Below, piece after piece: positions 18,006 through 22,016 of a stretch of DNA of 32,000 nucleotides. Origin of the DNA: Candidatus Thorarchaeota archaeon (GTDB lineage: Archaea > Asgardarchaeota > Heimdallarchaeia > Hodarchaeales > Hodarchaeaceae); contig JBHLRO010000032.1 in the NCBI GenBank assembly GCA_048882505.1, forward strand, positions 1,744 to 33,743. The letters run 5' to 3'. Each line of letters begins with the position of its first letter. Position 1 is the stretch's first letter. The position numbers were made by a program, and so were the translations under genes. The notes beneath the pieces were generated by a model. The model saw only the letters and a list, made by a program, of their open reading frames with translations, was not told the origin of the DNA and did not search any database.

Positions 18006-18536
18006 TCAGATACTTCCCTTCTTGGTTCGATACAGCTGTCTAATGGTACTTATTTGGCCGTGATGATAGGAATCATGGTGAATCATCGTGAATATGATCC
18101 TTTTAACAGGCCACAAGTCCCCCCAGTTGGTAGAAACCTCTAGTTCCAGTTGCTCATCGGTTAACAACCGAATGCTTTCCACTAATCGCTCTTGAGTCTG
18201 TTTCAAGTAACTAACGCACATGGGCCATTGGGGCGAATCCAGGGCACTCCACTTTAGGTGACGCTCCCTGAAAGCGTAATCATCATACATTATTTTGCAA
18301 TGCGCTAGATGTACCACCTTAAATTCAATGGTAGAAACAGGATCAAATTTTTGTGCCCTTAGCCAATCGCTTCCTTTTTCGTTCCACCTTTTTATGGTAT
18401 CTAACGTCATCGAATTAGGAGTCGGCAACCATCTAGCCTCTGTTTTTGACAGCATAGCTAGGAGTTTAAGTAGCTCCTGAAAACGGTATTCCAATTCCCG
18501 TTCTATAATAGGAATAATCTTTCGGTCAGCGGTCAT
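18006..18536 (-). CDS. DinB/YfiT-family protein
   Basis: VVHLAHC and IHHDSYHHGQI metal-binding His pattern in a helical protein. Confidence 0.8.
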   Translation of the reverse strand: MTADRKIIPIIERELEYRFQELLKLLAMLSKTEARWLPTPNSMTLDTIKRWNEKGSDWLRAQKFDPVSTIEFKVVHLAHCKIMYDDYAFRERHLKWSALDSPQWPMCVSYLKQTQERLVESIRLLTDEQLELEVSTNWGDLWPVKRIIFTMIHHDSYHHGQISTIRQLYRTKKGSI

Positions 18537-18728: not shown

Positions 18729-19151
18729 TTATTGCGGTGAATCGCCGTGATGGAGGTCAATCGAAGATAAGACAGGATCTTTGCCTTTTCTAACAATCAT
18801 AACTACGCCATCACATACATCTGGACAGCAATCAACCAGAAATCCCAGTATCTTTTGAACTCGCATTGTTACTTCGGTCACCATCTCCTTACCCTTCAAA
18901 GTCAGCGCATACGTTCGGATCCGTTTATCTTTTCGGGCATCCAATGTTGTTTCTTTGATGTAACCTTTTTCTGACAATGATTGGACGATCTTATAGGTAG
19001 CTCCAGTGGTAGGAGTCCAATTCTCGCCTAGATCATTCCTGATCTTTTTTACGATTTCTGTACCAGATAAGGACGAGGAATTGTAGAGTGACATTAAAAA
19101 CAGGGCTTCTAAAGAGGTTATCTCAATATTCTTGCCGATCATACTTAACAC
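18729..19151 (-). CDS. PadR-family winged-helix regulator with C-terminal DCCPDVCD
   Basis: LSGTEIVKKI...PTTGATYKIVQSLSEKGYI...RIRTYALTLKGKEM. The start is GTG 19151 or ATG 19142. Confidence 0.85.
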   Translation of the reverse strand: MLSMIGKNIEITSLEALFLMSLYNSSSLSGTEIVKKIRNDLGENWTPTTGATYKIVQSLSEKGYIKETTLDARKDKRIRTYALTLKGKEMVTEVTMRVQKILGFLVDCCPDVCDGVVMIVRKGKDPVLSSIDLHHGDSPQ

Positions 19152-19215
19152 ATTGAGTTTGTTAACAGTTCTCCAATTCTCGAAGTGTTTTTTGTCATTT
19201 TCCCTGACCTCAAAA

Positions 19216-19225
19216 TATATAAATA
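19216..19225 (+). promoter_or_regulatory. TATA box of arsM (possibly shared with divergent padR)
   Basis: TATATAAATA preceded by CAAAA in the AT-rich divergent intergenic region. Confidence 0.6.
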
Positions 19226-19232
19226 TTTGTTT

Positions 19233-19270
19233 CTTTGGAATATTCCAAAGGAATATTGATTATGAATATT
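19233..19270. promoter_or_regulatory. Candidate operator: perfect 18-bp palindrome plus GAATATT repeats
   Basis: CTTTGGAATATTCCAAAG at 19233-19250. GAATATT occurs at 19238, 19251 and 19264, a 13-bp period. Confidence 0.65.
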
Positions 19271-19310
19271 TGCCAATCCAATCGTTAGAATCTTAAAAGA
19301 AGGAAATCCT

Positions 19311-20339
19311 ATGACAAGTCTTGAAACATCCAAGAAGGTAAAAGATGAACAAAAAAATACCGATTCGAAAGCTAATATCGAATCGACGTTTGTAGAGGCC
19401 CTTTCTGACCGCAACTACTCGTGTTGTGGGTCTGAATCATCTTCTGAAGAGAGCTCACCAAAGACAATTGATGATACCACCGTGAGGAGAGAAGTTCGGA
19501 AACAATATCGGGCAATTGCTACTGAGACTAACCAATCTGAAGACGATGGATCTGAAATTCTCAAGCAAAACCTTGAGACGAGTGGCTATACGTGGTATTC
19601 TGAGGAAGACCTAGATAGTATTCCCCAAGGGGCTAATCTAGGTTTGGGTTCAGGTAATCCGGTCAAGCTGGCGTCAGTTCGACCAGGCGAGGTCGTGGTT
19701 GACCTTGGTTCAGGAGCGGGAGTAGATGTATTTCTCGCCTCGAAGAAAACGGGGAGCAACGGAAAAGTCATAGGAGTGGATATGACTCCAGAAATGGTTG
19801 ATAAGGCACGTAGCAATGTTCGATCAGGTAAATACGACAACGTCGAATTTCGACTTGGTGAAATCGAACATTTACCTATTGCAGACAATACTGCGGATCT
19901 CATAATTTCAAACTGCGTTATCAATTTATCCGTTGATAAATCGCAGGTATTCCGTGATGCTTATCGTGTTCTAAAGCCTGGGGGTCGATTGGTGATTTCA
20001 GACATAATCTTGGAGAAAGAACTTCCAAAGGTTGTAAGGGACGCAATTCAGCACGTTCCTGGATGTCTTACAAGATCGCAAACGGAACGAGAGTACCTCA
20101 GTCTAATCGAATCCGCTGGATTTGTTAACGTCGAAACATTGGATAAAATGATCCTTTCCCCTCGGGATTCGCAGAATAAGAAGCTATTAGAAGAGAATTT
20201 TGAAGGGACACGGAAGGCTCGCGTCATTCTGGATGGAAAGCCCGTCGAAATAGATATGTCTGCTGAGGAAATCAAGGAATTATCAACGTCTATTTCTGCT
20301 GCCCACATCAGAGCGATAAAACCCAAGATAGGCCCTTGA
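19311..20339 (+). CDS. arsM: Arsenite S-adenosylmethionine methyltransferase
   Basis: ANLGLGSGNP, VVDLGSGAGVD, VIGVDMTPEMV, LGEIEHLP, ISNCVINLS, LKPGGRLVISD, GC motif. Confidence 0.85.
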   Translation: MTSLETSKKVKDEQKNTDSKANIESTFVEALSDRNYSCCGSESSSEESSPKTIDDTTVRREVRKQYRAIATETNQSEDDGSEILKQNLETSGYTWYSEEDLDSIPQGANLGLGSGNPVKLASVRPGEVVVDLGSGAGVDVFLASKKTGSNGKVIGVDMTPEMVDKARSNVRSGKYDNVEFRLGEIEHLPIADNTADLIISNCVINLSVDKSQVFRDAYRVLKPGGRLVISDIILEKELPKVVRDAIQHVPGCLTRSQTEREYLSLIESAGFVNVETLDKMILSPRDSQNKKLLEENFEGTRKARVILDGKPVEIDMSAEEIKELSTSISAAHIRAIKPKIGP

Positions 20340-20681: not shown

Positions 20682-22016
20682 CTATATTGGCATTTTCTTA
20701 CCCAGGTATTCATCTGATTCCCAAAATTCATCTGAATCCCTTGTTTCGCGTTTCCACCATTTTTTGCTTTCCTTTGGACGTTTGGAGATCCTTTTTTTAA
20801 GCGATTCATAATTTCGTTTGAAAAATCCAATCTTGGGTTCCTCCCCACAAACGGTTCTTCTTGGAATCTTTGGTTTTCCCTTTCCTCGATCCAACCAGAC
20901 CCAAAGAGGATTAAATACTGGTAATTTTCTTATTATGAACAGTCTAAGCCTCCTAAAAAGACTGCGGGGCTTGCCAAATTGGCAAACGGCCAGGCAATTA
21001 GAACAATCCGAGGTATTTAATGTCCAGTACTGATAACACGTGTCAACGTTCACGTACCACTTATATGTGGCGCCGGAATTATTGGAGGGGGTTTTCCAAT
21101 GGCTCTCCCAAGTGGGATTTTTATCGAAAGGGATAGCCTGGGGAGGGCAATATTTCGCGCACTTCTGACAAACTTGGCAATATTTTCTAACACCAAAAAA
21201 GGTTGGGGAGTCTGATTCCATTGGAAAATCGGTAAATACTTTGCATATTCTGACATTCGGACCCAACCTAGGATGAATAAGCATTCCGTGCCTCCCAAAT
21301 TCGCCCAGTCCGGCCTTGATGGCAAGAGGGACTGAGAGTCCTACATCATTTCCCGCTTGAATGGCAGTATAACCCAGATTCCGAAGGAATTCTCCCATTA
21401 GCGAAATCGAAAAGGCCATTCTTGAATACGCATCTCCGGTCGTAATACTAGCAGGAAGTTCCGGTGACGTTCTCAAAGCCTCTGCATCCATCTCTATGAG
21501 CAATATGATTGCATATTTGACCCCTTCTGGTAATTTCAGTGGACTTCCGTCGTCATTATGAGAATAGATTAACTTCGGATCTATCTCACAAATCCCCACG
21601 TCAGCCGCGCCAAATATCTGCCCGACTCGTTTAACGGTTTTCGAATTGATTCTGGGATCCTTGGATTCATATTTAGGAAGAGTTGTACTAAGTTGAGTCA
21701 ATTCAACTTTTCCAGGATACGGTATACGATCCCAGGAAAAGGCTTGTGGGTATTTATCGTAGATCGTCCATGCTGCTGATTGTACAGCATAACCCACTCG
21801 ACTATATCCTTTCTTCCCAACCATTGTTCCCTGTTTTTCGGCCAAAGTCTTTCCGTATGCTCTGTATGAAGGATCCCATCTAACCCGGGAAAAAATCACA
21901 TTCCTTTGCGAGAATTGTGAAAAATCCTCTTCTAGCATTGCATAACCTAACTTGTTGCTCCAAAACTCCCTTTCTTTCGATCGTTTCTGTTCACTTAACT
22001 GCATCGAATGAACCAT
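20682..22016 (-). CDS. rdhA: Reductive dehalogenase (cobalamin, 2x Fe-S), no Tat signal
   Basis: FGAADVGI, LRNLGYTA, PLAIKAGLGEFGRHG, GPNVRICKVFTD, CQVCQKCAKYCP and C...CSNCLAVC. Confidence 0.88.
   Translation of the reverse strand: MVHSMQLSEQKRSKEREFWSNKLGYAMLEEDFSQFSQRNVIFSRVRWDPSYRAYGKTLAEKQGTMVGKKGYSRVGYAVQSAAWTIYDKYPQAFSWDRIPYPGKVELTQLSTTLPKYESKDPRINSKTVKRVGQIFGAADVGICEIDPKLIYSHNDDGSPLKLPEGVKYAIILLIEMDAEALRTSPELPASITTGDAYSRMAFSISLMGEFLRNLGYTAIQAGNDVGLSVPLAIKAGLGEFGRHGMLIHPRLGPNVRICKVFTDFPMESDSPTFFGVRKYCQVCQKCAKYCPPQAIPFDKNPTWESHWKTPSNNSGATYKWYVNVDTCYQYWTLNTSDCSNCLAVCQFGKPRSLFRRLRLFIIRKLPVFNPLWVWLDRGKGKPKIPRRTVCGEEPKIGFFKRNYESLKKRISKRPKESKKWWKRETRDSDEFWESDEYLGKKMPI

Follow-up and report, generated by a model that had tools for sequence, protein, structure and literature searches.

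The locus described here lies in a stretch of 32,000 nucleotides (hereafter the window) from the genome of a Candidatus Thorarchaeota archaeon, an Asgard archaeon whose source assembly is 4.3 Mb long and 94.5% complete. The region of interest holds two divergent genes, padR (padR-CC in our annotation; 18729-19142, minus strand), which encodes a 137-residue PadR-family winged helix-turn-helix (wHTH) regulator of subfamily-2-like type, and arsM (19311-20339, plus strand), which encodes a 342-residue ArsM-family S-adenosylmethionine (SAM) methyltransferase. Between them is a spacer of 168 bp that carries an array of operator-like boxes and a candidate core promoter, and the regulator itself ends in a tail with two adjacent cysteines, for which we refer to the protein and its orthologues as CC-PadRs. 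The nearest relatives of both products come from genomes labelled Heimdall-, Hod-, Hermod- and Lokiarchaeota and 'Promethearchaeota', and a single database homologue bears an Odinarchaeota label.

The assignment of the regulator rests on domain matches, a homologue alignment and structure models. The open reading frame at 18729-19151 (minus strand) matches the PadR family PF03551 over residues 24-91 with a score of 40.7 bits (cut-off 27, E 2.3e-10), and its sole and best sequence match in the PDB is B. subtilis PadR (5x11). No match to HTH_5 (PF01022) is found in this protein at E<=0.01, which sets it apart from the ArsR/SmtB regulators, and the partner scores 294.7 bits against a cut-off of 263 for NCBIfam NF008823, 'arsenite methyltransferase'. 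These matches bear out the earlier sequence-only reading of this stretch, which had placed a PadR-type wHTH protein, and not an ArsR, divergent from arsM. The homologues all open with M-[ILF]-GK, and we therefore prefer the ATG at 19142 as the start codon and reject the GTG at 19151.

An AlphaFold2 (AF2) model of PadR, with a mean predicted local distance difference test (pLDDT) score of 86, places helices at residues 10-20, 27-38 and 46-58, a wing at 62-80 and a long helix at 82-105, with the cysteine pair at the very end of this last helix and a disordered tail past about residue 115. When the model was used as a Foldseek query it matched exclusively MarR/PadR-type wHTH proteins. Modelled as a homodimer, the protein scores 0.52 as compared to 0.02 for the best control, thereby passing a mark that 20 of 30 proteins known from paired structures attain, as does one of 23 known from single-chain structures, and the separate runs agree in at least 51% of their contacts with a pLDDT of at least 71; as PadR dimers are among the solved structures, resemblance to them may account for part of this result. 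The modelled dyad runs near residues 95-99, far from the two cysteine pairs, and residues 104-110 are predicted to lie in the interface, packed on alpha1 of the partner (residues 14-20). The predicted architecture is thus that of PadR subfamily 2, a wHTH domain with one C-terminal dimerisation helix that forms a homodimer, and the model puts the cysteine pair where the dimerisation helix ends, as in the ArsR protein AfArsR.

The tail of PadR reads GFLVD-C105-C106-P-D-V-C110-D, so that the C-terminal D-C-C-P-D-V-C-D on which the sequence-only reading had built its case is indeed present; the codons of the proposed thiolate site, C105-C106-P107-D-V-C110 at the C-terminal end of dimerisation helix alpha4, occupy 18813-18830 on the minus strand. 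That reading had taken the motif for a three-cysteine sensor, and conservation supports it in one part and fails it in another. C105, C106 and P107 are invariant in all 15 close homologues (50-85% identity). HMMER, run exhaustively over 1.84 billion representative proteins, returned just 70 matches, and among them the pair stands at the same place in 19/19 single-domain representative clusters with E<=6.6e-8, down to 35% identity, directly after a conserved F-x(3-4) that closes the last helix. The weaker matches contain a CC in 4 of 50 cases, at the C105-C106 position in just two, and the background in the window's own genome is such that 3.8% of open reading frames of 80-270 residues contain any CC at all. 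The proline follows the pair in most CC-PadRs, not in all. The third cysteine is by contrast variable: seven of 18 orthologues lack C110 and carry the pair alone (CCPDG, CCPNG and similar), three have one extra cysteine, and the remainder have two or three extra (CCPxCC and/or a C-terminal cysteine), several reaching four or five tail cysteines (CCPECC...C). As judged from these alignments, the conserved unit of PadR is the vicinal pair, usually with a proline next to it, and not a three-cysteine site.

The partner aligns with solved ArsM structures, including Chlamydomonas ArsM (5evj), and was further compared in an alignment of 16 orthologues. It departs from the canonical set of four cysteines, which we take to be C44, C72, C174 and C224 in CmArsM numbering: the equivalents of C174 and C224 are kept as C202 (in SNCV) and C252 (in GCL), a C38-C39 pair stands upstream of the VRxxY motif, nearer the N-terminus than the usual position, and the cysteine of GCGNP is replaced by Ser114 (codon 19650-19652, plus strand). 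This replacement is the rule in the family, as 13 of the 16 orthologues read GLGSGNP instead of GLGCGNP. GCG(N/S)P is retained in three (L007, L012 and L020, in our numbering of loci), exactly the three loci whose PadR carries CCPxCC, a match to be read against a small sample of loci that are not phylogenetically independent.

The spacer contains a perfect 18-bp palindrome, CTTTGGAATATTCCAAAG, at 19233-19250. A clear operator-like palindrome had been claimed for this spacer; the palindrome stands, with box A of the operator inside it, while its outer arms (TTTGG/CCAAA) are unconserved, which rules out a single palindrome of 16-18 bp as the operator. What is conserved is an array of boxes spaced by 13 bp. 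In the window these are box A, GGAATATTCC (19237-19246), at the centre of the palindrome and nearest to the padR-side TATA, box B, GGAATATTGA (19250-19259), 13 bp from box A, and box C, TGAATATTTG (19263-19272), 13 bp from box B; they are given without strand, and their centres fall at 19239-19244, 19252-19257 and 19265-19270. The orthologous promoters were aligned by eye in a common orientation, 16 at the outset with L021 and L023 added, and each of the 18 has two or three (G)GAATATTC(C) boxes, box A among them, with a spacing of exactly 13 bp. In every orthologue a B-recognition element (BRE)/TATA-like element, for example AACATTTTTAAAG, faces padR 8-12 bp beyond box A; in the window this is CAAATATTTATATA (19216-19229, minus strand, TATA at 19216-19223), a candidate core promoter of padR. 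It may work in both directions, and the boxes may accordingly either overlap the arsM start, if the TATA is bidirectional, or take up the interval that separates two divergent core promoters.

Counts support the specificity of this array. A phased AATATT pair, with one mismatch allowed, is found in all 18 CC-PadR promoters as compared to 0.045 per kb elsewhere in the same loci, and at none of the arsM promoters of 19 Asgard loci without CC-PadR; in the window two 13-bp-phased pairs are observed where 0.2 are expected. With up to one mismatch allowed, the 4.3-Mb genome has no second copy of the three-box form. We considered a wider regulon and rejected it, as the two other three-box matches have two mismatches each and look like AT-rich chance. 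The locus L023 encodes a 44%-identical CC-PadR with the same three boxes (within L023:200-291), and its divergent partner is not arsM but a 61-residue cysteine-rich peptide (L023:14-199, minus strand) that ends CGSLMGTGARCGCGAQAGCC and is possibly metal(loid)-binding. Because this CC-PadR keeps the boxes without an arsM partner, the boxes go with the regulator, as expected for its own operator.

Every CC-PadR orthologue with enough contig stands divergent from an ArsM orthologue, and the other flanking genes differ. This holds for 16 loci in which both genes are whole, in addition to which the set includes the partial loci L002 and L021/L022 and one contig without DNA; the loci come from genomes labelled Heimdall-, Loki-, Hod-, Hermod- and Promethearchaeota and from several unlabelled metagenome contigs, and one orthologue (L012:4001-4369) belongs to the cultured Asgard archaeon Lokiarchaeum ossiferum (CP104013). 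In a sample of 201 genomes of the phylum, five besides the window's own carry an uninterrupted, full-length CC-PadR at E<=1e-40 (G181, G102, G136, G127 and G092), and each of these has arsM next to it on one contig. The match in G172 is no more than a fragment of PadR, on a short contig, and that in G025 is weak (E 8e-19) with an in-frame TAG, the arsM of this genome lying on another contig. The pairwise identities of PadR and ArsM also co-vary over the 16 loci (Mantel r=0.86, reached by 0 of 2000 permutations), as a co-inherited cassette would show, although shared species history would also contribute.

The strongest single argument for the role of this regulator comes from two genomes of the same genus. 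A Hodarchaeota metagenome-assembled genome (L008) and its sister (L034) share DinB, ArsM and MaoC-like genes in a common order, at 81%, 76% and 69% identity respectively. The slot between ArsM and MaoC is filled in L008 by a divergent CC-PadR (L008:2479-2868, plus strand) and in L034 by a co-directional ArsR (L034:2636-3100, plus strand) with an HTH_5 match, an R773-type ELCTCDL and an N-terminal SCC. This in-situ non-orthologous replacement argues that PadR does the job of an ArsR. The sequence-only reading had cast PadR as a regulator that controls arsM, and the invariant divergent synteny, the conserved operator and the ArsR-filled slot of the sister genome uphold it; we regard PadR as very probably the dedicated local regulator of arsM.

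Cysteine-tagged regulators are not confined to this family. Inspection of the neighbours of 19 other Asgard arsM genes identified AbrB/MazE-like proteins at six loci, co-directional and upstream of arsM (one gene removed in L037): L036:3748-4041(-), L037:4803-5198(-), L038:2545-2835(+), L040:1183-1464(+), L041:3821-4069(-) and L048:2614-2958(+). Five of them have two CC motifs and L041 has one (for example CCKVE... and ...CCISLI), and the family assignment (PF04014) was tested on three of the six; we know of no AbrB-type arsenic regulator that has been described. At four loci, L045:3936-4358(+), L046:2447-2875(-), L050:216-569(-) and L051:2625-3017(-), arsM is divergent from a PadR of another lineage, marked by an N-terminal CCPPDCCDMRG. 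This motif is kept in 113 of 120 database homologues, the named ones mostly Thorarchaeota, and is cut off in some gene calls because those start at the internal MRG methionine. The remaining cases are an ArsR with CxC plus CC and an HTH_5 match at two loci (L034 and L049), a MarR with two CC motifs divergent from arsM (L035:3608-4297, plus strand), an HxlR with a CC (FCC) one gene from arsM (L047:4848-5267, plus strand) and a TrmB-like protein with one CC, its family judged by eye (L044). Because CC recurs on several arsM-adjacent DNA-binding folds, against a background of few CC-bearing proteins, the pair is best regarded as a ligand-binding device.

The window's own genome holds two further arsenic-related loci. 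On contig C10, at about 42.7-44.3 kb, a second ArsM paralogue (L030:2272-3057, plus strand; 247 residues, all four canonical cysteines, 238 bits for NF008823, just below the cut-off) stands back to back with a regulator of the TrmB family (L030:1438-2181, minus strand) that ends SSSACCKVEDKTCP (ACCKVEDKTCP) and whose sole homologue found, at 70% identity, keeps SSSACC. This regulator looks like a second cysteine-tagged one, built on another fold, next to an arsM of this genome. The other locus is an Acr3 arsenite efflux gene (L028, C3:237477-238433; TIGR00832, 409 bits) with about 480 bp of non-coding DNA upstream, and no regulator, ArsR included, was seen within 1.5 kb of it.

We propose a model for the padR-arsM pair that most reasonably fits these observations, in which PadR is a repressor of arsM that responds to trivalent arsenicals, As(III) or methylarsenite (MAs(III)), through the thiolates of its cysteine pair. 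On the strength of alignments, models and functional analogy we consider this reading probable; the sign of its action (repression, not activation), the nature of the ligand and the allosteric path are the parts that we infer. In the absence of ligand, homodimeric PadR would occupy the three GAATATTC boxes, 13 bp apart, which fill the space from the padR-side BRE/TATA to the arsM start, and bound PadR would block the TATA-binding protein (TBP) and transcription factor B (TFB), or RNA polymerase, at arsM and probably at padR too. When present, a trivalent arsenical would bind the thiolates of C105-C106, with C110 completing a three-sulfur As(III) site in the window protein. The two-cysteine orthologues, L005 and L014 among them, would have as their natural ligand MAs(III), for which two thiolates are sufficient. 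A metalloid held at the end of alpha4, packed on alpha1 of the partner, would then distort the dimer so that DNA is released and arsM is switched on.

Several observations weigh against this model. The want of conservation in the third cysteine excludes a classical three-sulfur As(III) site as the ancestral mechanism, and the loss of the GCGNP cysteine from most of the ArsM orthologues that we aligned means that the substrate of the enzyme may not be inorganic As(III). Some distant CC-PadRs stand not beside arsM but beside the cysteine-rich peptide of L023 or a CopZ/HMA protein (L024), so that in some members the CC module could sense other soft metals; the contexts of the most distant ones (P0021, P0028 and P0033) are contigs of less than 1.6 kb and only partly informative. 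The boxes lie upstream of the padR-side TATA, a position that is also used by archaeal activators. Finally, CC-PadR is rare: its profile is found in 8 of 201 sampled Asgard genomes, the window's own included, as compared to an ArsM-like gene in 109 of the 201, which indicates that CC-PadR serves just one arsM clade.

The likeliest of the rival explanations is that the pair works as a redox or electrophile switch based on thiols, or senses another thiophilic species (for example Sb(III), Hg(II), Cd(II) or Cu(I)), and that the ArsM-like enzyme methylates a different substrate, for example selenium or tellurium species or thiols. Vicinal thiols bind many soft metals, ArsM is without one of its four canonical cysteines, and to the neighbours of the distant CC-PadRs may be added a gene for MerB, of the organomercurial lyase family, 3.5 kb from the padR-arsM pair in a metagenomic locus (L006:1-408, plus strand). 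We nevertheless think this explanation unlikely, as the partner scores above the arsenite-methyltransferase cut-off and keeps the arsenic-binding C202 and C252, the arsM synteny is invariant in the close family, and the ArsR that holds the regulator slot of the sister genome has an R773-type ELC-x-CDL.

The position of the boxes leads to another rival, in which PadR is an arsenical-dependent activator or dual regulator that, when loaded with ligand upstream of the padR BRE/TATA, recruits TBP/TFB. In archaea a site upstream of BRE/TATA is typical of activators, and the boxes stand immediately upstream of the padR-side element in 18/18 promoters. Against this, the characterised metalloid sensors of the PadR, ArsR and MarR_ars types are repressors released by ligand, and a bidirectional TATA, or an arsM promoter placed between box C and the ATG, would bring the array onto or up against the region where arsM starts, in keeping with repression; an activating role is in our view improbable. 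That the cysteines are structural (a Zn or Fe-S site or a disulfide staple) and that PadR binds an organic ligand as a classical PadR does, or no ligand, is very improbable, for although PadR proteins typically bind aromatic or hydrophobic ligands and the tails with four or five cysteines could hold a metal cluster, the seven two-cysteine orthologues have too few for Zn or Fe-S within one subunit, the two pairs lie far from the dyad in the model, and the presence of CC on six DNA-binding families beside Asgard arsM points to ligand chemistry rather than to fold stability.

The model of PadR as an arsenical-responsive repressor leaves room for a narrower ligand. In ArsM enzymology the first two cysteines are required for methylation of As(III), not of MAs(III). 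The cysteine pattern of ArsM, together with the selectivity of the two-cysteine ArsR protein SpArsR, allows, and does not prove, a circuit oriented to MAs(III). More broadly, the vicinal-cysteine tag could be a portable arsenic-sensing module carried on at least six scaffolds (PadR with C-terminal CCP, PadR with N-terminal CCPPDCC, AbrB/MazE-like, MarR, TrmB and ArsR), each guarding an arsM, with the two-cysteine PadR and the ArsM lacking the GCGNP cysteine tuned to methylarsenite as a defence against MAs(III) that other sediment anaerobes would make as an antibiotic. We put this forward tentatively, as a speculation that is more likely to fail than to hold. Many regulator folds with a CC tag beside arsM would amount to a clear case of convergent sensor evolution, and the wider association of CC with arsM hints at an ecological importance of methylated arsenic for Asgard archaea in anoxic sediments.

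Two further genes adjoin the pair. A DinB_2/MST-like gene (18006-18536, minus strand; Pfam DinB_2), of a putative thiol transferase family, recurs beside it in the window, L001, L006, L008 and L034 and may be an accessory of the padR-arsM unit, its membership being uncertain. On the other side a gene of the reductive-dehalogenase family (20682-22016, minus strand; TIGR02486, 195 bits against a cut-off of 160) is convergent with arsM and has an orthologue in L001.

Among known systems, the closest in fold are the PadR proteins of subfamily 2, LmrR and, for DNA binding, B. subtilis PadR, which share the N-terminal wHTH domain and the single long C-terminal dimer helix. Those that are known use a hydrophobic pore to sense drugs or phenolic acids, and none of those compared carries a CC motif at its end. 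Nearly all that is known of arsenic sensing comes from bacteria and from ArsR, and the padR-arsM locus provides a concrete archaeal candidate sensor, a small new scaffold for arsenic biosensors and, in its two- and three-cysteine variants, a natural pair for the study of selectivity between As(III) and MAs(III). Work on cold-seep metagenomes has reported arsM and acr3 genes in Asgard archaea (PMC10060404), and our literature search found nothing that links PadR, Asgard archaea and arsM.

The placement of the cysteines finds its nearest parallel among the ArsR proteins, for which several types of As(III)-binding site are established (PMC11868830). In the type 2 protein AfArsR of Acidithiobacillus ferrooxidans, C95, C96 and C102 lie at the ends of the C-terminal dimerisation helices (PMC11868830), a vicinal pair and a third cysteine that resemble C105, C106 and C110 after the helix at 82-105, as a functional analogy only. 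SpArsR of Shewanella putrefaciens has two cysteines and is selective for MAs(III) (PMC11868830), a form paralleled by the Asgard PadR orthologues without the third cysteine. Both are ArsR/SmtB (HTH_5) proteins, whereas the window protein is a PadR. MarR_ars (Achromobacter AdMarR), which uses C36, C37 and C157 and leaves its DNA in the presence of As(III) and Sb(III) (bioRxiv 10.1101/2021.08.12.456183), is likewise a winged-helix repressor outside ArsR that has been recruited to arsenic genes with a vicinal pair and a third cysteine; it differs in being a bacterial MarR-family protein with an N-terminal pair and one distal cysteine, and it controls arsV, not arsM.

The most direct precedent is PadRars of Azospirillum halopraeferens Au 4 (Zhang et al. 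2022, Environ Microbiol 24:5139, pmid 35880613), which, as far as the accounts in PMC11566425 and PMC12817078 go, is a bacterial PadR repressor of a trivalent-metalloid operon. A PadR in the place of an ArsR, which the sequence-only reading had pointed out, therefore has a published counterpart from 2022, and the concept of PadR as an arsenic sensor is not new. The two share the family, a place beside arsenic genes and an operator in the regulator's own promoter region, which is an inverted repeat in PadRars and lies in the shared intergenic region here. Compared by description only, they differ in that PadRars is bacterial and its reported operator reads CCTTGA-N11-TCAAGG (PMC12817078), as opposed to GAATATTC boxes at a 13-bp phase here, and no PadRars-like protein was found among the CC-bearing relatives in the exhaustive search of representative proteins. 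What is new in the locus described here is its archaeal (Asgard) lineage, the different operator, the AfArsR-like placement of the cysteine pair, the natural two- and three-cysteine variants and an orthologue in a cultured archaeon.

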